A program made the position numbers and the translations under genes. The notes beneath the pieces are model-generated. The model saw nothing but the letters and a program-made list of their open reading frames with translations, ran no database searches and was not told the origin of the DNA. Shown in pieces: positions 2,739 through 32,000 of a DNA stretch of 32,000 bases. The first letter of the stretch is position 1; the number at the start of each line of letters is the position of its first letter. Origin of the DNA: Nitratidesulfovibrio vulgaris str. Hildenborough (GTDB lineage Bacteria > Desulfobacterota > Desulfovibrionia > Desulfovibrionales > Desulfovibrionaceae); NCBI RefSeq assembly GCF_000195755.1, contig NC_002937.3:1560001-1592000 (forward strand), in the 5' to 3' direction.

Positions 2739-5518
2739 CAAAATACTCCCATGAGTTGCGTGGGTTCTCCGCCCACAGTCACATATACGGGAACCTCAAG
2801 CCCTCCATCCATTGCTGTGATGGGGCGGATGGATCCAGAAGGTGTGTTGAGAGCAAAGTCCACATCGACAGTCTGTCCGTCGGCGGGGTGGCCTGTAGCT
2901 GTCACTGCGATACGGTAGGCAAAGCCGACCTCAAGGTTGCGCACGATGAATGACGGATCCGCTGTCGTTCCAGCGAGCCACCAAGCATTGCCTCCACTGC
3001 CAAGCTTGCGCACGAAGATGGACCAACGCATGGCATCACCACGCCACGCGAGTGACACAAGGCGTTTGGCCACAAGGTCCTCTGTGACCTGCATGAGGGT
3101 TGCCACCAGAGCTGTGACGCTCGGCAGCGTGGCGCTGGATGGGATGCTCGGCGGCTGGCCTTCGTCGGCGTATACGGCCTCGTCGTACTCCAGTGCCTCG
3201 ATCTGCACCCGCATGTCTTGCGTGCGTGCGATGGAGAGCACGCGATACCATCGGGCGTTGCGTCCAAGCTCTCCCACTGTCACCGTGGCTGTTTCGGACG
3301 GGGCGAATTGAAGGGGGGCAGCAAGGTGCAAGGTGCTCGTGGAGGTGTGTTGCGAGACAGGAGCGAGGGTAACCGACTCGTGGAGCTCGTTGCCTGTGTC
3401 CGCGCATTGCCGGTCTACATGCCGAACAAGTACTTGATAGGTAGTTCCGGGTTCGAGGGTCACAGGCCTGTTGAGGGTGATTTCCGTGGGTGTGGCCGTG
3501 AGTACGCGTGCGGACTGTGTACGGTGCAGTAGATCATGTGCGATCTGGATGATGCGCCCGGGAGCGACGTGCGAGCCTAAGGCGTCGACATTGCATCGCA
3601 GGCTGATTGTGCGGGCCAGATACCGGTTGCATCTATCCATGTAGCGAGCCCAGCGGTATGCCTGTGCTTCCGTCGTGCAGGGATAGAGGGTTTCCTGCCG
3701 GATTCTCGGGGTACGGCCTGCAATGATCCCGTATTTTTCACCGGGGACGAAAAGCGTTTCCGGCCCGCGTTCGGGGTGGAACCATGTCACTTCCCAAGCA
3801 TCGGCCCGGTCTGTCAGGGCTGCATACCCTACACCGCATGTGCCGTTGAGGATGTTGGCTGGCGTGACCAACAGTCCTTGATCGGGGAATTGTTCAGGTC
3901 TGTCGCTGATACACCCAATGCTGGTGCCACGAGGGAGGATGCGGAACCTTCCGAATCGACCGAGATAGGACGCCGCTGTTTCAAAGTTCATATCGGTGTC
4001 AAAGTACATCGCGCCTGTGATGCCTTTCTCGTCACACCACGCGGCTGCATCCGCAAAGTCTTGGAGCGCGACTTGCGACACTGGCCAAGCGACCCCGTAG
4101 CGGCGGTTTAGCAACAGGTCGAGTGCCATCCATGCGGGGTTGCTAGCAGGCCGGGAGACAGTTCCACCGTTACCGTCCGGCAGGGGCAGGGTAGAGCGCT
4201 CTGCTGTGCAAGTGACGGTGAAGGCGCTGCCGTTCAGCTGGTCGGTAGCCAGTGCCCGAACCGCGAAAAGAGCCATGTTGGGAAGCCGGAAATCATCAGG
4301 CACGATCTCGTGGCAGTATTCCCACCATGTATCGCTCATATGCCTCGTGTCGCTGGCGGGTGGAGTGTTGAAGCGGACTCGTACCTCGTAGTGGCCAGTT
4401 GGAACGGCATAACGCCAATAGCGACGGACTGCAGCGCGCTGGGATGCGGTGATGGTCTGCGTATCCAAGTGGGTCCAAGCCGTGGCTCCAATGACCCGGC
4501 ATTCTATGTCGATGGTCACAGAGAGAGAATCAAGCCCGCCCTTGTCGTTGGCGTACCACAGCCCCTGCAAGCAGGATATGCCGATACCGATGCTCTGTGT
4601 GTTGTTCCCTGAGAGAGTGACAGTGTGCCAATTGGTGCTGATCTTCACTCCGACAGCCTGTTCACTCACAGCATCATTGAACGCAGGGATGACGCTCTGA
4701 TCGGGCGTTCCCTGTCGGGTTTCGACGACGACTTCGGTGTAGTTGCCGATGGGGTTGCCATTGATTTTCACGTCGGAGATAGCATCAACAGGCCCCTCTC
4801 CTATGATGAAGAGCATGTTCAAGTACTGCTTATCACCGTCCGTGCTGATGAATTGCCCCGCCTTGAATGGGGCAAAGTTCTCCTTTCTACCGTACAGGAT
4901 GGGGACAGGGCGTCCATTTTCGATGGGGTTGGTCGGTGCCCACCCATAGTTGGGTGACTCCTGCAGGGGGTCAGCTCCGATAGCGCGTCCGGATCCCACC
5001 CGGCCCGGAGGAAGTACGGCATTGATCGCGACGGCTCCCCCGACAGCCACGAGACCTCCTGCTATGGCGCCAGCCGTTCCCATCGCACCGGCCATGCCGA
5101 TGGCCGCTTCGGCGGAGATGAGACCTGCGCTCATCATGCCCGACATGGCCCCTGATACGAGCCAGCCTCCTATGGCCGGGGCTGTGACCAGCAATGCAAC
5201 CATGGCCACCGTCGCCAGTGGGTTTTTCCCTCCGCCTCCTCCCAAGGGGATGACGGTAGCAAGCACCGCATCACCGGGTTGCAGATCGTATATCTCCGCT
5301 TCGAAGAGCGTCAGCTTGCGGCCATTGATGGCAAACTGGATGTCGAAGGCCTCTGGGAGCTCGAATTCAGACGGGATGACTTCGGCAATGCGTAGTCCGG
5401 GGCGCCAAGCATGGTAGGCGCTATGCACATCAAGCGGATCGAGCCAGTTGAACGCTGTGGTTACAAGAACGCTAGCCGACTGCATCATAGCTCCAATACC
5501 CTGCCACGCGAGACGCAT
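2738..5518 (-). CDS. Host-specificity/central tail fibre protein (lambda gpJ-like) with an N-terminal gpI-like tail assembly domain (I-J fusion)
   Basis: The N-terminal ~200 aa carry a Gly/Ala-rich hydrophobic stretch plus ...NGRPVPILYGRKE..., as in lambda gpI. The rest matches the gpJ core (NPAWMALDLLLNRRYG, AWEVTWFHPERG, TTEAQAYRWARY..., GRIIQIAHD). Confidence 0.85.
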   Translation of the reverse strand: MRLAWQGIGAMMQSASVLVTTAFNWLDPLDVHSAYHAWRPGLRIAEVIPSEFELPEAFDIQFAINGRKLTLFEAEIYDLQPGDAVLATVIPLGGGGGKNPLATVAMVALLVTAPAIGGWLVSGAMSGMMSAGLISAEAAIGMAGAMGTAGAIAGGLVAVGGAVAINAVLPPGRVGSGRAIGADPLQESPNYGWAPTNPIENGRPVPILYGRKENFAPFKAGQFISTDGDKQYLNMLFIIGEGPVDAISDVKINGNPIGNYTEVVVETRQGTPDQSVIPAFNDAVSEQAVGVKISTNWHTVTLSGNNTQSIGIGISCLQGLWYANDKGGLDSLSVTIDIECRVIGATAWTHLDTQTITASQRAAVRRYWRYAVPTGHYEVRVRFNTPPASDTRHMSDTWWEYCHEIVPDDFRLPNMALFAVRALATDQLNGSAFTVTCTAERSTLPLPDGNGGTVSRPASNPAWMALDLLLNRRYGVAWPVSQVALQDFADAAAWCDEKGITGAMYFDTDMNFETAASYLGRFGRFRILPRGTSIGCISDRPEQFPDQGLLVTPANILNGTCGVGYAALTDRADAWEVTWFHPERGPETLFVPGEKYGIIAGRTPRIRQETLYPCTTEAQAYRWARYMDRCNRYLARTISLRCNVDALGSHVAPGRIIQIAHDLLHRTQSARVLTATPTEITLNRPVTLEPGTTYQVLVRHVDRQCADTGNELHESVTLAPVSQHTSTSTLHLAAPLQFAPSETATVTVGELGRNARWYRVLSIARTQDMRVQIEALEYDEAVYADEGQPPSIPSSATLPSVTALVATLMQVTEDLVAKRLVSLAWRGDAMRWSIFVRKLGSGGNAWWLAGTTADPSFIVRNLEVGFAYRIAVTATGHPADGQTVDVDFALNTPSGSIRPITAMDGGLEVPVYVTVGGEPTQLMGVF

Positions 5519-24482: not shown

Positions 24483-25464
24483 TGAGTCCCCTCCGTGCTG
24501 CTACGTTGCGTGCGAGTAAGTCCCTTGTGCGCGATGCCTTCTGTGCTTGCGTGGCGACGCGTGGCCCGTCCCGCTGTGGGGGCGTCTGCACCTCGGGTTC
24601 GGCTTTCCACAACTGCCGGGCGATGAAGTTGCCGAGGGATGGCGCGAATCGTCGTGGGACGTCGCTGTCCCATTGGCCAGACGCCTCCCATCGGTCGATG
24701 GCAGCGTAGATCGCGCTTTGTCCGGGCCATGAGCGTGAGGCGAGTGCTGCGCGGTACTCTTTGAAGCCGTCCATGGGGCCACCGACGCGGCCATGGGCGT
24801 TGTAGTACGCTCGCAGCTCCTGCCATTCGAGCGAGGGCATGCTCTCCTCCGGGCCATCAGGCGGCGGCGGGGAGGCAGAGGTGTCGAGGGGGGCTTCGGG
24901 CGTTTCGGAACCGTCCTCGCGCGTGCGCGCGTAAGAGAGAGAATCTTCTCTTACGTAAGTAGGAGCAGGAGTACTACGATCCGTAGTACGGTCGTTGTAC
25001 GCCGTACCTTCGTCGTACGTACGGCGTACATACGGCGTACCTGAGGCGTACATTTGGTACTCGGACGCGGAAATTCCCTTGTATCCGTCGGCCTTTAGCG
25101 CAGCAGCTGTTTCCGGGGCCGTGCGAGCGAGTCGAGATAGCCGGGCTGCATCGCTTCGGTCGTCAGCCTGAGCGGCCCAAGAGTTGTGCTCCTGCCAGTC
25201 ATGGAGTTCCCATGTCCCTTCCTCGCCATCGAGGAATCGCCCGTGAAGCTCGGCTACCAAGGCTCCTTCGTCTCCGAGCCAGTCTGCGGCAAGCTCTACG
25301 TCGAGTGCATCCATGCCGCTGAGGTTGCCATCTGGCCTGTTCTGAGCCGCCCACATCCACAAGATCTGCAGCGAGCGGACGCCTTCCAGTCCGCAGCGCC
25401 GAGCCAATCGCTTGACCTTGGGGTGTGACCAAAACCCGACCGAAAGTCTGATGTCGGTGTTCAT
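24247..25464 (-). CDS. Phage replisome organizer (SPP1 G38P / DnaD-like N-terminal domain), origin-binding candidate
   Basis: The N-terminus IRLSVGFWSHPKVKRLARRCGLEGVRSLQILWMWAAQNRPDGNL matches the replisome-organizer N-domain pattern. ATGA-coupled to the MTase. The last ~78 codons overlap the next gene out of frame and look compositionally abnormal. Confidence 0.65.
   Translation of the reverse strand: MNTDIRLSVGFWSHPKVKRLARRCGLEGVRSLQILWMWAAQNRPDGNLSGMDALDVELAADWLGDEGALVAELHGRFLDGEEGTWELHDWQEHNSWAAQADDRSDAARLSRLARTAPETAAALKADGYKGISASEYQMYASGTPYVRRTYDEGTAYNDRTTDRSTPAPTYVREDSLSYARTREDGSETPEAPLDTSASPPPPDGPEESMPSLEWQELRAYYNAHGRVGGPMDGFKEYRAALASRSWPGQSAIYAAIDRWEASGQWDSDVPRRFAPSLGNFIARQLWKAEPEVQTPPQRDGPRVATQAQKASRTRDLLARNVAARRGLNVDEILGKATGRPAAEATGDRGRTGGLYPGLSRIGGNGGASHGHGCPMAGGSGPLLAGSHHEGHTPPPQDIEVVPLDS
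24971..25060. repeat. Iteron-like array I: ten GTAC cores with 11-bp phasing inside the replisome organizer gene
   Basis: GTAC starts at 24971, 24986, 24997, 25004, 25015, 25019, 25026, 25037, 25048 and 25057. Five consecutive 11-mers (GGCGTACNNNN-like) span 25001-55. The inverted repeat GTACTACG-atc-CGTAGTAC lies at 24971-24989. Confidence 0.75.
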
Positions 25465-26930
25465 GACGCGTCCCTTTCAGAGGGTGAGAGGGTATCCGTA
25501 GAATTCGTACCGAAAGCGTACATACGGTCGTAGTACGATCGTAGTACGGTCGTACTTACGTGCTGTGGGTTGTCTGCCATGGCTGACCCTCGCATACCGC
25601 GCTGGTGATTTCCGGAAGCTGTGCAAGCTGTGGACGCTTTCTGGTTTTTGATTTGCGTATTGAGGGTGGACTGGATGCGCTCACCAATCCAGCGCATCAC
25701 CGGCACGGCCATGCTGTTACCCAATGCCTTGTAGCGTGGCCCATCAGGACAGGCGGTGGCTGGTTTGTTTCGCCATGCTATGCGCGTGTAGTCGTCTGGG
25801 AACCCCTGCAAGCGCTCGCATTCGCGTGGGGTCAGGCGGCGCACGGACATGCCGTGTTGAAGGTGCTGGTCTGTACCCGTCGACAGGGTGAAGGCAGTAT
25901 CGTCGCTGCCGAGATAGCCCTTGCCCCCGCCTTTGCAGCCGCAACGCACCTTGAAGGCGTGGGCAGGGGCTGGAAAGCCAAAATACCCGTCAACAGTGCC
26001 GCCTCCTTCGCGACCGCGAATGGCAAGGGAACAGGGCACGAACAGGCCGGCACCTCCGAGGGCATGTTGGTCTTCACGCCCTTGCTTGGCTCCGAAAGCG
26101 GCGTTTAGCGTCGGCGCTATATCCACGGGCCACGGGATGAGATTCTCCGTCTCCGGATCCATCCGCTGGCCTTGTGAAGCCAAGAGAGGCTTTGCTGCTA
26201 TGTAGGTGTCCGCGTCAGCCCTGTGGCTTGAATTGGCCCGGGCGCGTAGGCATGCAGCTACGTCAGGGGTGGAGTGGCCTCTTGATGGTCCGTTTGAGTC
26301 TCCGCCTGCGCTGTCTGCGAAAGAGCCCGACGCAATTGCTCTGGTAATCTCTTTCCCCGCTTCTCTGCTCGGCGCAGGATTCCCCGACAGGCTGTGCCGC
26401 TCAAAAAGAACCGCTGCGGCACGTCGCCAGTCTCCAAGATGTCCGACAACGAACACGCGACGCCGTCGCTGGGGTACTCCAAAGTATTGAGCGTCAAGAA
26501 TGCGGTAGGCGAACCCATACCCGAGTTGCGCCAAGCCCCCGAGAAAGGCTCCAAAGACCCGTCCGCGGTCAATCGACAGGACTCCGGGGACGTTCTCCCA
26601 GACCACCCATCGGGGGCGTATGTCTGCAAGAAGGCGTAGGAATGCGAGGGTGAGGTTGCCACGAGGGTCATCCAGTCCTCTTCGGAGGCCTGCGACACTG
26701 AACGCCTGACAGGGAGTCCCGCCGACCACAAGGTCAACTGTTCCACGGTACTGCTCCATAACGATTGTGGTGAAGTCGCCAAGGTTCGGCACATTGGGGA
26801 AGTGATGCGCCAGAACGGCGCATGGAAATGGCTCGATTTCAGCGAACGCGACGGGGTGCCATCCAAGAGGGTGCCAAGCCACGGTTGCGGCCTCGATGCC
26901 CGAGCATATGGAGATGTAGCGCATGGTCAT
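25461..26930 (-). CDS. DNA (cytosine-5)-methyltransferase (orphan, no adjacent endonuclease)
   Basis: Motif I ISICSGIEAA, motif IV GGTPCQAFSVAG, motif VI WENVPG, motif VIII QRRRRVFVVG, motif X GNSMAVPV. Start taken at ATG 26928-26930 (MTMRYIS). Confidence 0.9.
   Translation of the reverse strand: MTMRYISICSGIEAATVAWHPLGWHPVAFAEIEPFPCAVLAHHFPNVPNLGDFTTIVMEQYRGTVDLVVGGTPCQAFSVAGLRRGLDDPRGNLTLAFLRLLADIRPRWVVWENVPGVLSIDRGRVFGAFLGGLAQLGYGFAYRILDAQYFGVPQRRRRVFVVGHLGDWRRAAAVLFERHSLSGNPAPSREAGKEITRAIASGSFADSAGGDSNGPSRGHSTPDVAACLRARANSSHRADADTYIAAKPLLASQGQRMDPETENLIPWPVDIAPTLNAAFGAKQGREDQHALGGAGLFVPCSLAIRGREGGGTVDGYFGFPAPAHAFKVRCGCKGGGKGYLGSDDTAFTLSTGTDQHLQHGMSVRRLTPRECERLQGFPDDYTRIAWRNKPATACPDGPRYKALGNSMAVPVMRWIGERIQSTLNTQIKNQKASTACTASGNHQRGMRGSAMADNPQHVSTTVLRSYYDRMYAFGTNSTDTLSPSERDAS
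25496..25558. repeat. Iteron-like array II (same family, same orientation) just upstream of the organizer start
   Basis: GTAC starts at 25507, 25518, 25533, 25544 and 25552. Tandem TCGTAGTACGN 11-mers are present. It shares exact GCGTACATACGG (25516-27 = 25024-35) and CGTAGTACGGTCGT (25540-53 = 24982-95) with array I. Confidence 0.75.
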
Positions 26931-27127
26931 CTTCTCTTTCCGAGCCATCGGCCATCGCGGCAGCGCTTTTCGCACCACGCCAGAGGGAGCCATTGCCAAG
27001 GCGGCGTGGTGATAGGGCAGGGGCGCAGGTGTGGATGCATGTTGAGCATGTGTCGTAAGGCCGGGATGCTGGATGCCCCGACAGAGTGCGGGGAGTTCGG
27101 ACGGCAGCGCTTAGGATCGTAGGGCAT
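26927..27127 (-). CDS. 66-aa ORF coupled at both ends (hypothetical; odd P/R/W/H-rich composition)
   Basis: TGATG overlap with the upstream gene at 27125-27129 and ATGA overlap with the MTase start at 26927-26930. Confidence 0.35.
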   Translation of the reverse strand: MPYDPKRCRPNSPHSVGASSIPALRHMLNMHPHLRPCPITTPPWQWLPLAWCEKRCRDGRWLGKRR

Positions 27128-27483
27128 CAGTTCCTCCGTGCCTGAATGCTTGCTCGTTTGTTCCAGAGCGCGGCGTAAAGAGCGTGAAGGCTCTTATGCC
27201 GGCTGATGCCCATGGTCACAGATCCGCCGTTCCGGTAGCGTTCGGGAGTGAGGCCGTTGAACACGCGGTCGCATTGATCGAGGGCTTGAAGGAGGGCTTT
27301 GCCGTTCGCTCGTGTGCAGTGGCGGTGGAATGCCAACGCGGCGCAGGCCAGAGCTTCAAGCACGTCGTGCTCGACGACTTCGACCGTGATCGTGCCTTCG
27401 CGGGAGTTGTCGGGCATTGGAGGGTCACCGGAGATGAACAGGGGTACGCCAGCCTTCAAGGCCCGTGCATCGGTCGAGTTCAT
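27127..27483 (-). CDS. Phage early hypothetical protein (118 aa)
   Basis: ATG 27481-27483 shares 1 nt with the CII-like stop. Protein-like composition. Confidence 0.6.
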   Translation of the reverse strand: MNSTDARALKAGVPLFISGDPPMPDNSREGTITVEVVEHDVLEALACAALAFHRHCTRANGKALLQALDQCDRVFNGLTPERYRNGGSVTMGISRHKSLHALYAALWNKRASIQARRN

Positions 27484-27896
27484 CACTGATCCCGCTCTCT
27501 GGCACGGACGAGCACGTCCTCCAGTTCTTTGATGGCTGCGCGAAGCTTGGGCATGAGGTCTGTATAGTGCGCCCCGGCCCGTGCTGCCCTAGTGAACTCC
27601 GTCACTGCCTCGTAGCCCTGCAAGCACTCGTCTTCCATGTTCAGCCCATCGGGAGCCCCGCCGAGGGGGCGCAGCCCGTAGCCCATGAACCCGGCAATGG
27701 CCTCAAGGGGGGCGACGGAATTGCATGCACGCATGAGCGGCACCAAAGACTCGACGCCGAGCTTTGCGCCTGAATCGTAGGGTGAGAGCTCGCGCGAGAG
27801 CGTGGACTTGTGCTTGCCGATCTCGGCAGAGATGGCCGTTAGGGTGCGGCCCGAGTTCTCCACCATGTCCATGAGGACATCTTCAAGTGCTCGCAT
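27483..27896 (-). CDS. Phage regulatory protein, CII/CP76-like HTH
   Basis: TLTAISAEIGKHKSTLSRELSPYDSGAKLGVESLVPLMRACNSVAPLEAIAGFMG resembles the 186 CII (CP76) family layout. AGGAGG RBS. Lies downstream of cro, as for cII. Confidence 0.5.
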   Translation of the reverse strand: MRALEDVLMDMVENSGRTLTAISAEIGKHKSTLSRELSPYDSGAKLGVESLVPLMRACNSVAPLEAIAGFMGYGLRPLGGAPDGLNMEDECLQGYEAVTEFTRAARAGAHYTDLMPKLRAAIKELEDVLVRARERDQ

Positions 27897-28106: not shown

Positions 28107-28370
28107 TTAAGATTGCTTTGAAGCATCATGTTGATGGCTGCGCGGCTTGCGCGGAGTGCTGGGGGAGGTTGGGGTGCCAGCAAAAAGGTCAGGGCGCAGC
28201 TGCTCAAAGCTGATTCCGAGAGATCGTGCATAGGCGGCGCACGAGCCCAAATCAGGGAAAGACTTCCCTCGACAATGGCGCCATACCGTTGGGGTTTTCA
28301 GGCCTGACATGCGGGCAAGCGCTGAATAACTCAGACCTTGCTCTTCTCTGATTCTGTCGATGATGTTCAT
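28107..28370 (-). CDS. Cro-like XRE-family HTH regulator
   Basis: MNIIDRIREEQGLSYSALARMSGLKTPTVWRHCRG is an HTH. The gene is divergent from the CI-like gene. The start at ATG 28368-28370 is chosen because upstream in-frame ATGs lie inside or upstream of the predicted promoter. Confidence 0.7.
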   Translation of the reverse strand: MNIIDRIREEQGLSYSALARMSGLKTPTVWRHCRGKSFPDLGSCAAYARSLGISFEQLRPDLFAGTPTSPSTPRKPRSHQHDASKQS

Positions 28371-28377
28371 ATTTAAA

Positions 28378-28406
28378 ATATTACATCGGTGAAACATGAC
28401 GGTCAA
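28378..28406 (-). promoter_or_regulatory. PR-like sigma70 promoter for the cro/early-right operon
   Basis: - strand TTGACC (28406-28401) - 17 nt - TAATAT (28383-28378). The cro-like ATG begins 7 nt after the -10 element. Confidence 0.65.
28381..28395. promoter_or_regulatory. Operator-like site OR-a (TTACATCGGTGAAAC)
   Basis: 13/15 identical to 30388-30402. Overlaps the -10 of the PR-like promoter. Confidence 0.55.
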
Positions 28407-28413
28407 CGCTTCG

Positions 28414-28428
28414 CGCATGTCGATGCAA
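28414..28428. promoter_or_regulatory. Operator-like site OR-b (inverted, partial: TTGCATCGA core)
   Basis: The reverse complement is TTGCATCGACATGCG. Its first 9 nt are identical to the PL-region site. It is separated from OR-a by exactly 18 nt, as in the PL region. Confidence 0.45.
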
Positions 28429-28453
28429 CGAGTTGGCTGCTACCAAGCGAACT

Positions 28454-29107
28454 ATGAAGGCAAACCTTATCAACAAAAGAGCTTGGGACTCCATCTTGGC
28501 CAAGGTCAAAGACCTTGTTGAGCAAGGCATGACCTATAGCGCCATTGGAAAGATGCTCGGGAAGTCACCCGCCACCGTTAACAGGTGGGTCACGACTGGT
28601 GTGGGCGGAGATTCCACGCCTTTTGTCAATATGCTTCAATATATGGAAGCATTAGGACTTAAGTGGGGCGACATCGTTGAAAACCTTGAGCCTGCAGCCT
28701 GTGGTTACGGCTATGTTCGTAAGGTGCAAGCTAAGCTCGGAGCTGGCTCAAGCCTCATCACAAATGGAGATCTGGAAGGGATGTACGCGTTCCGGCAAGA
28801 CTTCATCAATGAGATGGGAGGCAATCCTGAGTCGCTGGTCATGTTTGATGTAATCGGAGCTAGCATGGAGCCAACTATACCCGATGGCTCCACCGTCCTT
28901 GTCAACCTGCGCGACACTTCAATCCGATCAGGGCTGATATACGCAGTGCGCGTTAACGACGAATTGCTGGTGAAGCGACTGATTCAAGAGCCTGGGCGCC
29001 TGCTATGTCACAGCGACAACCCAACGTTCGGCGATACTGTGATTGATGGAGAGAACCCGAACTTTGAGGTCTTCGGCAGGGTACGATGGCTTGCGAAACG
29101 AATGTAG
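28454..29107 (+). CDS. CI-like repressor: N-terminal HTH plus C-terminal S24 (LexA-type) autopeptidase domain
   Basis: HTH MTYSAIGKMLGKSPATVNRWV. S24 motifs VIGASMEPTIPDGSTVLV (Ser) and LVKRL (Lys). Candidate cleavage site LGAGS. ATG at 28454 (no SD, possibly leaderless or short leader), with an alternative TTG at 28433. Confidence 0.85.
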   Translation: MKANLINKRAWDSILAKVKDLVEQGMTYSAIGKMLGKSPATVNRWVTTGVGGDSTPFVNMLQYMEALGLKWGDIVENLEPAACGYGYVRKVQAKLGAGSSLITNGDLEGMYAFRQDFINEMGGNPESLVMFDVIGASMEPTIPDGSTVLVNLRDTSIRSGLIYAVRVNDELLVKRLIQEPGRLLCHSDNPTFGDTVIDGENPNFEVFGRVRWLAKRM

Positions 29108-29164
29108 CGGCACGTAAAGATGAGCTAAAGCCCAACTCGGGCAACACGCTAGTGAGGAAAAGGC

Positions 29165-30151
29165 ATGTGCGCTGGAGAAGACCAAGGCAATATTTTAGTT
29201 TTCAAGAAGGACAACAAGTTACCCAGCATAATCAATTCGACTGAACTCGGGGAGTACTTCAAAAACTCAAATTCAAACACATATCAAGATATACTAAATA
29301 ACCTGAACAGCATTTCAACAGCGCTGGATATTAAGTCGCTTATAGGTGACGGGGAAACATTTCAAATCATCGCAAAGAACGCAGACTTGATTGCTCCAGG
29401 TCAAGATGGACTTTATCCAGCAGTGTTAAGAGGCAAAGATGGGCGCATAGTCGAACACATAAAACTACGCAAAGCTGGCTTTGACTGCATGCAAGCGGCT
29501 CGCGTTGTTGGCACTCAGTTCATGCTTTTAAATATCGCTATGAAACTCGACGCCATCGATAAAAAGCTGGACACAATCAATAGCAATTTTCATATAGATC
29601 GCATTGCAAAGATTAAGTCTGGTCTTTCATCGCTTCGTACACTCCACCATTATGAGCAAGAGATTAGAGACCAAGAGGTCAGCAATACTCTTCAAACGCT
29701 TAGAGATGGCATGCATGCTGGCATCGAAGAACTTCGCTTCGACATCTCCAGGTGGCCCGATGAAACTACAGGATTTCTAGATGGATGGTTCGGGGATGGG
29801 GTCAAACAGGCAGAGCAGAGAATTGCAAAGTCACGAGAGACATTGTTTTACATTGCTGAAGCCCTGAAAGGAATGCTTGTTTGCGAGACACTGCGCAGCA
29901 ATCCTCAAATTCTTGCCATGGAGTCTCACTTCAAGGTTTTTCAGGACATGCTGAGCGATGGTATACTTGATATTGCAATTCGCAAATCAAGAATTCTTCC
30001 AAAATCTCGAACTGACATAAATGAATGTTTCTGGAATGAGGCTAAGGTCGAGCTCTTGAAACCCACAGTACAACTCGGATTCAAAATGCATGAGTCCATT
30101 GCAATCGAGATTCATACAAAAGATTTGGAGGTAGCAAGTCATGGCAAATAA
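29165..30151 (+). CDS. 328-aa soluble protein of unknown family (rexA position), AT-rich gene
   Basis: ATG 29165 with a GAGGA RBS, 57 nt after the repressor stop with no intervening terminator. Predicted helical/coiled-coil centre. I recognise no motif. Confidence 0.75.
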   Translation: MCAGEDQGNILVFKKDNKLPSIINSTELGEYFKNSNSNTYQDILNNLNSISTALDIKSLIGDGETFQIIAKNADLIAPGQDGLYPAVLRGKDGRIVEHIKLRKAGFDCMQAARVVGTQFMLLNIAMKLDAIDKKLDTINSNFHIDRIAKIKSGLSSLRTLHHYEQEIRDQEVSNTLQTLRDGMHAGIEELRFDISRWPDETTGFLDGWFGDGVKQAEQRIAKSRETLFYIAEALKGMLVCETLRSNPQILAMESHFKVFQDMLSDGILDIAIRKSRILPKSRTDINECFWNEAKVELLKPTVQLGFKMHESIAIEIHTKDLEVASHGK

Positions 30152-30320
30152 TAAGTGCACTGAGTGTGGTAGAGACCTAGTCGAAGGCGAAACTGAACTA
30201 TGCCCAAACTGTAAGCGTACAAAACATTCTACATGGAAAATGATAGGTTCCGTAGCTGTATTTGTGATCGCAGTGGTGGTAGTTATTGCCACTGGTAAAA
30301 AGCCTAACTTGGAGGCCTAA
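30141..30320 (+). CDS. 59-aa zinc-ribbon plus single C-terminal TM protein (rexB position)
   Basis: MANNKCTECGRDLVEGETELCPNCKRTKHSTWKMIGSVAVFVIAVVVVIATGKKPNLEA carries CX2CX11CX2C followed by a hydrophobic helix. It overlaps the upstream gene by 11 nt. Absent from the ORF track (<60 aa). Confidence 0.6.
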   Translation: MANNKCTECGRDLVEGETELCPNCKRTKHSTWKMIGSVAVFVIAVVVVIATGKKPNLEA

Positions 30321-30387
30321 TTCCATTACTGTCGTGATCTTCTCCCGGGCCATTTTCCTCGGGGCGGTTATTTTTTTGCAGCGCTCA

Positions 30388-30402
30388 TTGCATCGATGAA
30401 AC
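30388..30402. promoter_or_regulatory. Operator-like site OL-a (TTGCATCGATGAAAC, palindromic core CATCGATG)
   Basis: Same 15-mer family as 28381-28395. Lies 7 nt upstream of TTGACC. Confidence 0.55.
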
Positions 30403-30409
30403 GTTCTTC

Positions 30410-30438
30410 TTGACCTGACCTTTTCATCAATGCAAAAT
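30410..30438 (+). promoter_or_regulatory. PL-like promoter for the early-left operon
   Basis: TTGACC (30410-30415) - 17 nt - CAAAAT (30433-30438). Geometry is identical to the PR-like promoter relative to the operator pair. Confidence 0.5.
30421..30435. promoter_or_regulatory. Operator-like site OL-b (inverted copy: reverse complement TTGCATTGATGAAAA)
   Basis: 13/15 match to OL-a in inverted orientation, with an 18-nt spacer. Overlaps the predicted -10. Confidence 0.55.
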
Positions 30439-30696
30439 ATCTTCACCACCACCGAGGAACACCCCGCGAGCGGCGCCCAACCGGGCAGAGCGGACGGAAG
30501 GAGCGGAGGAGGGTGGTCCCGCCGGTCAGTAGCGAGGCTCGAACGACACGCGACGGCATGCAGGTAGCGTGGATCAGTAGGGAACCGGGACCGAAGGCCA
30601 TGAAGGCGGGCGGCATCAATGAATATGGATCGTTGCCCTTGGGATAGAGCGAAGGCCACCCACGGGACGGCGATCCGGAGAGCAGCCGGAGGGAAT

Positions 30697-30846
30697 ATGC
30701 CAACCATCATCACCAGAGTGAACGGCAGGCCTGTCAGGACGAAGCGGGCATGTATGCTGATCCTTCTGATCACGGCCGTTCAGATCTCGGACCTCAGGCT
30801 CGAGGCACGCATGTGGCAACGGGCAAAAGGGTGGGAGGTAGAGTAG
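30697..30846 (+). CDS. 49-aa ORF, first after the PL-like promoter; basic N-terminus (speculative N-like regulator)
   Basis: GGAGGG 3 nt before ATG 30697. Sequence MPTIITRVNGRPVRTKRACMLILL.... The stop lies 2 nt before the next ATG. Confidence 0.3.
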   Translation: MPTIITRVNGRPVRTKRACMLILLITAVQISDLRLEARMWQRAKGWEVE

Positions 30847-30848
30847 CC

Positions 30849-31145
30849 ATGAAGTGGTTCACCATCGCCTACACCCGTGAGGGAGCCGACCGGATCCATG
30901 CCGAAACGGCAGAGCACGCGAACGAGAGCGACGCGTGGCGGTACGCTGCCGACATGGCGGACTCCGAGCCCGGATACGAGGTCGAGGTCATGCCGCACTA
31001 TTTCACCATCCCCTCGAATCAGGGCCACAGCTACAGACATGAAGCCCGTGATGCTCGGAGCCGTACCGCCTTGGTTGGGTTGCATCACAAGGCCATCGCT
31101 GCCCGCGAACGGTTGACGCTCGCACGGCCGACGGCTTCAACCTAA
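30849..31145 (+). CDS. Phage early-left hypothetical protein (98 aa)
   Basis: ATG 30849 (MKWFTIAYTREG...) with GGGAGG upstream. The track start at 30750 is an upstream extension. Confidence 0.6.
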   Translation: MKWFTIAYTREGADRIHAETAEHANESDAWRYAADMADSEPGYEVEVMPHYFTIPSNQGHSYRHEARDARSRTALVGLHHKAIAARERLTLARPTAST

Positions 31146-31190
31146 GGCGTAGAGCCGTTTTTCCCCGACATCCCTGTCTAGGAGGACAGC

Positions 31191-32000
31191 ATGGATCAGG
31201 CACAGAATCTTGCGCCCATCTCGACGCACGCCCCCGTTCCGACCGGCAGCTTCATGCCTGTTACGGAGATGGTGGCCCAAGTAGGGCACATACAGGCCGT
31301 GATGCGGGCGGTCATGAAATCAGACGAACACTACGGAACCATCCCCGGATGCGGCGATAAGCCCACGCTGCTCAAGCCCGGCGCGGAGAAGCTCGCCATG
31401 ACGTTCAGGCTCGCACCCGAGTACGACATCCTCGAGCGTGACCTTGGGGGCGGGCACCGTGAATACCGGGTGACGGCACGGCTCGTATCCATTCTCACCG
31501 GTGTCTTTGTCGGAGCCGGGGTGGGGCTCTGCTCCACGATGGAGGGAAAGTATCGCTTCCGTACCGGCGAGGGCGAGGTCACGTCCGTACCGGTGCCCAA
31601 GGCCTATTGGGATACCCGAAAGAGCGATGCCGCGGCTGCTGCGCGGATCTTGCGCACCACAGCCAACGCGGCAGGGCTCGAAGGTACCAAGTTCGGCACC
31701 AAGAAGGATGACTCCGGGCGCTGGATGATCAGCACCCATGGGGAGCGGGTCGAGCACGACAATCCCGCCGACTACTACAACACCGTGCTCAAGATGGCGA
31801 AGAAGCGTGCCCTTGTGGACGCGGTTCTCACCAGCACTGCCGCCAGCGACATCTTCACGCAGGACGTGGAGGACATGCCCGAGGTCATTCCCGGTGCCGC
31901 CGCCACTGTGCAGCCCGCACAGCAGAAGGCGCAGGCCGCACCAAAGAAGGCTCCGGTGCAGCCGCAAGCCAATCAGCCGCCTACTGCATCCAGCGCACAA
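31191..32000 (+). CDS. Phage early protein, partial (runs off the window); possible ssDNA-annealing/recombination protein
   Basis: AGGAGGA RBS and ATG 31191, open for 270 codons to the window end (not in the ORF track because no stop is present). Motifs YGTIPGCGDKPTLLKPGAEKLAMTF and NTVLKMAKKRALVDAVLTSTAASDIFTQD. It occupies the position of lambda bet. The functional call is tentative. Confidence 0.6.
   Translation, partial: MDQAQNLAPISTHAPVPTGSFMPVTEMVAQVGHIQAVMRAVMKSDEHYGTIPGCGDKPTLLKPGAEKLAMTFRLAPEYDILERDLGGGHREYRVTARLVSILTGVFVGAGVGLCSTMEGKYRFRTGEGEVTSVPVPKAYWDTRKSDAAAAARILRTTANAAGLEGTKFGTKKDDSGRWMISTHGERVEHDNPADYYNTVLKMAKKRALVDAVLTSTAASDIFTQDVEDMPEVIPGAAATVQPAQQKAQAAPKKAPVQPQANQPPTASSAQ

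Follow-up and report, generated by a model that had tools for sequence, protein, structure and literature searches.

A conserved gene pair encoding a helical protein and a predicted zinc-ribbon membrane protein, a candidate defence module in the rex position of a Nitratidesulfovibrio vulgaris prophage

The window analysed here is a stretch of 32,000 nucleotides (nt) from Nitratidesulfovibrio vulgaris str. Hildenborough (contig NC_002937.3, positions 1,560,001 to 1,592,000). In the immunity region of the prophage that it contains, two plus-strand genes, referred to below as A and B, directly follow the gene of a CI-type repressor. Gene A (29165..30151, +) starts 57 nt past the cI stop and encodes a soluble protein of 328 residues, which belongs to an unannotated family and is predicted to form a helical bundle. 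Gene B (30141..30320, +) overlaps A by 11 nt and encodes a protein of 59 residues with a predicted N-terminal zinc ribbon, a basic linker and a C-terminal transmembrane (TM) helix. Shine-Dalgarno-like sequences precede both start codons (GAGGA ahead of the 29165 ATG and GGAGG ahead of the 30141 ATG), and the overlap indicates that B is translationally coupled to A. An initial annotation of this DNA had described the same two overlapping open reading frames (ORFs), placed them in the position that rexA-rexB occupy in phage lambda, and proposed them as a phage-exclusion or abortive-infection system expressed in lysogens; the gene arrangement it gave was recovered here.

The repressor gene (28433..29107, +) encodes helix-turn-helix (HTH) and S24 autopeptidase domains (Peptidase_S24, 1.4e-19; HTH_23, 3.7e-6; phrog_4 repressor, 9e-34). 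The 57-nt spacer between cI and A (29108..29164, +) carries the GAGGA sequence and contains no terminator-like site, its fold being no better than that of shuffled sequence (z = 0.43), which agrees with the earlier claim that neither hairpin nor terminator separates the repressor from A. A terminator-like hairpin absent from the initial annotation is found just after B, where TCCCGGG...CCTCGGGG is followed by a T-run (30343..30377, +; the hairpin itself spans 30343-30364). It is present in the minimum free energy and centroid folds, with a total energy not better than that of shuffles. The PL-like promoter/operator module that had been reported at 30388-30438 comes next. It consists of a consensus-matching promoter, TTGACC-17-CAAAAT (30410..30438, +), which reads away from the cassette, and of two operator-like near-palindromes, TTGCATCGATGAAA upstream of the -35 (30388..30401) and TTTCATCAATGCAA overlapping the spacer and the -10 (30422..30435).

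On the other side of cI, the consensus scan identified a PR-like sigma-70 promoter, TTGACC-17-TAATAT (28378..28406, -), which reads into a cro-like HTH gene (28107..28418, -; Pfam HTH_3 8e-6, HTH_24 5e-6, PHROG transcriptional regulator families) divergent from cI. An operator-like site, TTACATCGGTGAAA (28381..28394), lies over the -10 of this promoter and contains the motif common to both sites of the PL-like promoter. When at most one mismatch is allowed, 28381, 30388 and 30422 are the only positions of this motif, TTNCATCRRTGMAA, in the 32 kb, the pattern having been derived from these same three sites; a half-site of related sequence at 28420-28432 complements 30384-30396. Downstream of cro lies a CII-like gene (27483-27896, -; Phage_CP76, 2e-7). 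The region thus shows what characterizes a lambdoid immunity region, that is divergent cI (HTH and S24) and cro genes, cII past cro, and operator repeats at both early promoters. Genes and sites run in the order OR/PR - cI - A - B - terminator - OL/PL, which mirrors the lambda arrangement cro - OR - cI - rexA - rexB - OL - N (annotation L018). At the sequence level, the A-B pair therefore lies downstream of cI and upstream of OL/PL as lambda RexAB does, and the rexA-rexB position proposed for it is borne out.

The sequence of B reads MANNKC-TE-C-GRDLVEGETEL-C-PN-C-KRTKHSTWK-MIGSVAVFVIAVVVVIATG-KKPNLEA. As previously described, the cysteines follow a CX2CX11CX2C pattern (C6-x2-C9-x11-C21-x2-C24) and there is only one hydrophobic helix, which spans roughly residues 33-51 and has a mean Kyte-Doolittle value of 3.05. 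The four cysteines are invariant across 11 divergent partners, which share the motif CxxCGRxLxxGExxCPxC. The CxxC...CxxC spacing is common to B and the Pfam DZR and zinc_ribbon families, and the best Pfam match of B is to DZR, below the gathering threshold (E 0.0012, 19.4 bits for a cut-off of 27.3). Unlike in the DZR families, the ribbon of B continues into a C-terminal TM anchor and is marked by a conserved motif of its own, CGRxLxxGE.

Relatives of A were collected by searching 1.84 billion cluster representatives (50% identity clusters) exhaustively with HMMER at a threshold of E <= 1e-3. There were 125 at this threshold and 55 at E <= 1e-10, the best non-self match being at 9.4e-30. Nearly all are 300-350 residues long (median 326) and they are 20-31% identical. 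Those that were checked are nameless or called "hypothetical protein", come almost entirely from metagenomes or metagenome-assembled genomes, and fall in clusters of 1-5 members. The exhaustive search was needed because a word-index search recovered only the 98% identical copy P0001 with A alone, and only P0057 and P0001 with a 54-sequence profile. A scan of GTDB representatives with A returned no member, and the divergence of alignments A1 and A3 precluded pattern scans.

Modelled with AlphaFold2 from the 54-sequence alignment, A reached a pLDDT (predicted local distance difference test) of 75 and a pTM (predicted template modelling score) of 0.67; the model from the single sequence was unusable (pLDDT 34). 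A helical bundle, led by a 55-residue helix, is modelled with confidence at residues 108-300, and short strands at the N and C termini pair together. Residues 60-107 are poorly modelled yet constitute the most conserved stretch of the protein (Y66, G82, V87, G93, I95 and H98). The other conserved motifs are hnDRiaei..G, nAiQtL..G, P....ffDnW, KARLvP....PE..W and ieiEf.p.El, and none of them suggests catalysis. Searches of Pfam, NCBIfam, PHROGs and PADLOC with A and the 54 members gave nothing consistent, and the PDB yielded no match to sequence or profile queries. A marginal phrog_3698 match (E 0.054) had no counterpart in other members and was discarded. Foldseek searches of PDB and BFVD with the A model gave matches of E >= 0.05 and a template modelling score <= 0.32 at best; these (MP1, translin, designed repeats, MukF, ClyA and CorA) were rejected as generic helical bundles. 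The description of A as a soluble helical protein with no assignable motif is thus upheld, and neither profile nor structure searches placed it in any characterized family, of non-defence or other function. In one relative, P0111 (445 residues), an N-terminal Toprim domain (residues 43-115, E 8e-12) precedes a segment (about 265-433) that corresponds to the N-terminal half of A-family proteins; this single case may be a read-through or contig-end artefact. Toprim domains are found in several defence nucleases.

Conservation of A and B as a pair was evaluated wherever the sequence continues downstream of an A homologue, which amounts to 31 loci and about 20 independent lineages. A zinc-ribbon-TM gene directly follows A in all of them (15/15 loci from contig look-up and 16/16 from the metagenome scan, one of the genes being frameshifted). 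These partners are homologous to B and 50-97 residues long, one clade having a tandem double ribbon (88-97 residues), and the two genes usually overlap by 4-17 nt. The partner was overlooked by gene callers in L004, L009 and L015, so that pair searches built on called genes would miss the A-B family. In one protein, P0070 (393 residues), A, ribbon and TM helix form a continuous polypeptide, the single natural A-B fusion. As a Rosetta-stone fusion it implies that A would work membrane-tethered through B. Over window positions 28456-32000 the metagenome contig L001 shows 98.7% identity, and both ORFs are intact in it. Synonymous and non-synonymous differences from the window number 4 and 0 in cI, 8 and 6 in A, and 3 and 3 in B. 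The 125 homologue clusters, together with the excess of synonymous over non-synonymous changes relative to L001, indicate that A and B are real, selected genes. Within 3 kb of the pair, no third gene was recurrent among the loci.

The low GC content (guanine plus cytosine) of the cassette, estimated by eye in the initial annotation, was confirmed by calculation. The A-B pair has 42.8% GC vs 59.3% for the rest of the window; in 200-nt windows the values are 39-49.5% across 29100-30400, 59-65% downstream, and 57-65% upstream of 28200. Pairs at other loci are also AT-shifted relative to their flanks (40.8 vs 61.2% GC in L002, 38.7 vs 52.3% in L009, 35.6 vs 46.4% in L011, and likewise in L004). 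Base composition at these loci thus supports horizontal acquisition of the A-B pair, as had been suggested for the present one.

The genes surrounding the pair were inspected in 12 independent long contexts, 9 of which are defence islands or mobile elements. One of these is the prophage immunity region of the window. In L014 the pair stands directly after cas6-cas10-csm2-5 (type III-A) and in L013 a few genes from cas1-cas2. Type I restriction-modification genes, an AAA_15/21 ATPase, ParE/Phd, ERF and an insertion sequence accompany it in L004-L007, and in L017 the neighbours are AbiEi/Eii, Fic, HipBA, Nmad2/3, PLD and a resolvase immediately upstream. It follows a DUF2357-CSD protein and a UPF1-like helicase in L015/L016, where a WYL gene is nearby. 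The remaining contexts hold WYL/WCX, AAA ATPase and ERCC4 genes (L011/L012), patatin and AAA_13 (L027), and a WYL gene, a helicase-RNaseH protein and DUF3584 (JetC-like) (L028). WYL (BrxR/CapW-like) regulator genes were observed within a few kb of the pair at L011 5215-6219, L019 2215-3249, L028 1529-2341 and L015 20724-21062, and the copies of L011 and L019 are homologous to one another. No relative of CI, Cro or CII was found in the flanks of the other family loci. The expectation that homologues would co-occur as a pair next to CI-like repressors elsewhere therefore held for the pair (31/31 loci) but not for the repressor: adjacency to CI is specific to the present phage and its near-identical metagenome copy and is not family-wide.

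Outside the immunity region, the window encodes the morphogenesis proteins of a lambda-like siphovirus in one block (TerL, portal, capsid, tape measure and a J-like protein). The TerL is 51% identical to that of Pseudomonas aeruginosa phages, e.g. PMG1 and PP9W2. A C5 cytosine DNA methyltransferase gene (25461-26999, -; Pfam DNA_methylase, 2.7e-55) belongs to the early-right operon, downstream of cII, and no restriction gene adjoining it was noticed. The true start of the cro-like gene is likely the ATG at 28370 (MNIIDRI...). Taken from 28418, the ORF leaves only 14 nt between cro and cI. The -10 of the PR-like promoter (TAATAT, 28383-28378) lies only 7 nt before the 28370 ATG, so that, if this is the start, the cro-like mRNA would be leaderless or nearly so. 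Close relatives of the CI repressor, with which the content of the slot in sister phages could be compared, were found neither in genome nor in viral collections. Megablast of the region against phages gave no match, and no Rfam family or tRNA was detected when the window was scanned for them. Past the window end, the early-left operon of the same phage in L001 encodes a DUF1351 protein (3766-4662, 4.6e-69) between two unannotated proteins of 330-342 residues.

Several further features were observed around the cassette. Substitutions between L001 and the window are concentrated in the interval 30320-30442 (1865-1985 in L001), which spans the terminator and the OL/PL-like module and has about 13 differences, 2 of them indels, in about 123 nt; divergence is about 0.5% downstream and 0.6% in cI. 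One of these changes, 30429 A>G in L001, turns TTTCATCAATGCAA into TTTCATCGATGCAA, which matches the 30388 site exactly in inverted orientation. An inverted repeat of 24 nt, 75% complementary with the core GGAGAAGA/TCTTCTCC, has its arms at 29169-29192, just inside the A start, and at 30327-30350, just past the B stop, and so brackets the cassette almost exactly. It may be due to chance, be a relic of cassette insertion, or allow long-range pairing in the mRNA. Two promoter-like matches at 29938-29994 (+), in the 3' part of A and 150-200 nt upstream of B, recall the position of lambda pLIT, which serves rexB alone; in AT-rich DNA such matches are weak evidence. Finally, the region 30443-30749 (+), a stretch of about 300 nt downstream of the PL-like promoter, is GC-rich and strongly purine-skewed (AT skew to 0.33, GC skew to 0.27), has no gene called in L001 and no Rfam match, and may be an untranslated leader or antitermination region.

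Defence genes are documented in the slot behind CI, both in lambda (RexAB; PMC11077077) and in P. putida (RexABpp; PMC12894663). The likeness of A-B to lambda RexA/RexB lies in this slot, with two same-strand genes right after cI, no terminator between, then a terminator and OL/PL, and in the succession of a soluble protein of about 30 kDa and a small inner-membrane protein (PMC11077077). Their products are nonetheless unrelated, as the initial annotation had stated. The 54-sequence profile of the A family aligned with lambda RexA in hhalign at a probability of 0.2% only (E 0.26, 22 columns), no RexA entry was among the top 50 PDB matches of the A model in Foldseek, none of which had E < 0.05, and BLASTP of B against RexB gave no alignment at E <= 100. 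Whereas RexA forms a two-domain, RdgC-like dimer that binds DNA (PMC11077077), A is modelled as a helical bundle; RexB (about 16 kDa) has 4 TM helices, B a single one and a zinc ribbon; and rexA and rexB do not overlap, in contrast to the translationally coupled A and B. A cytoplasmic protein combined with a membrane protein near the repressor is also the arrangement of the prophage two-gene defence systems PP_5643/5644 of P. putida prophage P1, Sbash gp30/31, Butters gp30/31 and CarolAnn gp44 (PMC12894663, PMC6426596, PMC7542560, PMC11077077). Activation of the P. putida RexAB-type system leads to membrane damage and growth arrest (PMC12894663). This system was considered as a relative of A-B and rejected, since it contains a true RexA homologue; the four TM helices predicted for PP_5644 (PMC12894663) have no counterpart in A or B either.

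The short hydrophobic effectors with one or a few TM helices of abortive-infection systems such as CBASS, Pycsar and retrons, which are encoded beside a larger cytoplasmic partner in defence islands, resemble B in these respects. They presumably act on the inner membrane. Their systems, however, have an identifiable signal-generating enzyme or reverse transcriptase, and A has no enzymatic signature. No PADLOC model matches a zinc-ribbon-headed TM effector such as B; searches of PADLOC with the 54 family members gave only three single, unrelated matches (E 0.002-0.006). No described defence pair with a zinc-ribbon-TM protein was found matching A-B in the literature, and the CoCoNuT paper makes no mention of a zinc-ribbon-TM partner. 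A-B is best regarded as a non-homologous variant of a familiar type, the two-gene defence cassette that includes a membrane protein and is carried by prophages or islands.

Together, these observations are most readily explained if A-B is a mobile module, most likely one of anti-phage defence, that was captured into the rex slot of the present temperate siphovirus. Defence-island and mobile-element neighbourhoods in 9 of the 12 contexts give independent support to a defence reading, and a role of some kind in defence is, in our judgement, reasonably probable. The narrower proposal, that A-B is a self-contained, mobile two-gene module acting against phages by abortive infection, stands at about an even chance on the sequence evidence. 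Lying in the cI slot with no terminator in between, A and B would be co-produced with the repressor in lysogens. The C-terminal helix of B would anchor its tail in the inner membrane and leave the zinc ribbon on the cytoplasmic side, and A, a presumably non-enzymatic helical-bundle protein, would bind this ribbon in a membrane-held stoichiometric complex. Upon infection by another phage, a signal would alter A, the putative infection-responsive regulator; the altered A would free or reorganize B or the A-B complex, membrane integrity or energization would be lost, and the infection would abort. B may thus anchor A, be the membrane-active part, or both, with an abortive or exclusion action at the inner membrane. 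Such a scheme would copy the logic of RexA/RexB with no homology to either. We hold it slightly short of even that A-B is an undescribed autonomous system, with a tail-anchored ribbon protein of 50-97 residues as its sole membrane part and an A fold that has no relative in PDB or BFVD, spread among environmental defence islands, and that its capture in the rex slot is a non-homologous reinvention of RexAB.

Several points weigh against this interpretation. The association with defence islands was judged by eye on 12 contexts, a small sample with no background control, and three of these (L002, L009 and L029) are plain housekeeping. Neither A nor B matches any of the 5027 models of PADLOC-DB v2.0.0 (2023) at E <= 1. 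A has no recognizable sensor, enzymatic or nucleic-acid-binding domain. Basic residues stand on either side of the B TM helix, so that its topology prediction is two-way, and the lone P0070 fusion could be a frameshift artefact. The consensus scan revealed no PRM-like promoter upstream of cI. Finally, tblastn with A and P0009 found no member in 50,697 phage records and 72,556 plasmids, and a scan of the IMG/VR contigs with A found none either, which makes carriage by a prophage the exception.

The same features are open to other explanations. It is unlikely that the membrane-tethered pair acts by superinfection exclusion, blocking DNA entry or an early membrane step with survival of the host, even though this would account for the predicted shape of B, which has almost no periplasmic portion and a cytoplasmic ribbon and would suit an anchor or a DNA- or protein-binding module better than a pore. 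A is large relative to B and holds most of the surface that is conserved, and P0070 would then represent A working at the membrane. Repressor-adjacent genes expressed in lysogens often encode exclusion proteins; most members of the present family, however, lie not in prophages but in chromosomal islands beside Abi-, toxin-antitoxin (TA)-type and nuclease systems, and no similarity to the known Sie, Imm and Sp families was found in PHROGs or PADLOC.

The frequent proximity of the pair to TA systems (ParE/Phd, HipBA, AbiE) and recombinases, its AT-richness and its patchy distribution would also be expected of a selfish addiction (TA-like) or other accessory module of mobile elements with no role in defence, in which B would be the toxin and A its neutralizer. 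A tight coupling of a small hydrophobic protein to a larger partner is in line with this, but the order of the genes, large first and small membrane gene second, and the P0070 fusion fit a separable antidote poorly. Since many TA modules of islands are themselves defence systems, such a reading overlaps with abortive infection by A-B; taken as an alternative to it, we find it improbable.

Three further explanations are disfavoured because of the distribution of the family and the lack of linked genes. A function in the phage life cycle (modulation of the CI/Cro switch, lysis or induction) could be suggested by the place of the pair inside the immunity region and the cI transcription unit, and by the report that RexA biases the lambda switch toward the lytic state (PMC11077077), but it is very unlikely given about 20 other lineages with no CI, Cro or CII in their flanks, mostly outside recognizable phages, the absence of members from sequenced phages and IMG/VR, and a composition that marks the pair as foreign to the phage. 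Membrane-associated ancillary effectors of type III CRISPR-Cas systems are known, and in L014 (1769-11168) the pair lies on the same strand, 268 nt past csm5 and a 77-residue gene of a complete type III-A operon, which leaves a CRISPR-ancillary role as a possibility for that lineage; as a general explanation, a function ancillary to other systems has very little to recommend it, with cas genes in only 2 of the 12 long contexts (L014 and L013) and none in the 32-kb window, no CARF, SAVED or other signal-sensing domain common to members, and no conserved third gene. Lastly, a housekeeping or stress function at the membrane, with a helical scaffold and a small anchor as in PspA-PspB/C or LiaH-LiaI, is suggested by the combination of a long-helix protein with a tiny single-pass partner and by the three housekeeping contexts, and is hardly credible in view of the extremely sparse distribution (clusters of 1-5 members), the failure of Foldseek to retrieve PspA, Vipp1 or ESCRT-III structures, and the foreign composition of the pair in housekeeping contexts (41 vs 61% GC in L002).

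The computational case for A-B as a defence module is unusually clean in its strict pair conservation, its fusion and its contexts, at a time when new candidate defence systems are numerous. If the interpretation is true, A and B would constitute a new defence system made of two families with no annotated relatives, one of them a tiny membrane protein headed by a zinc ribbon. It would provide a compact system of about 1.15 kb for the cytoplasmic control of a single-pass membrane partner during infection, and it would mean that the slot behind the repressor of temperate phages has been filled convergently by unrelated pairs of soluble and membrane proteins.

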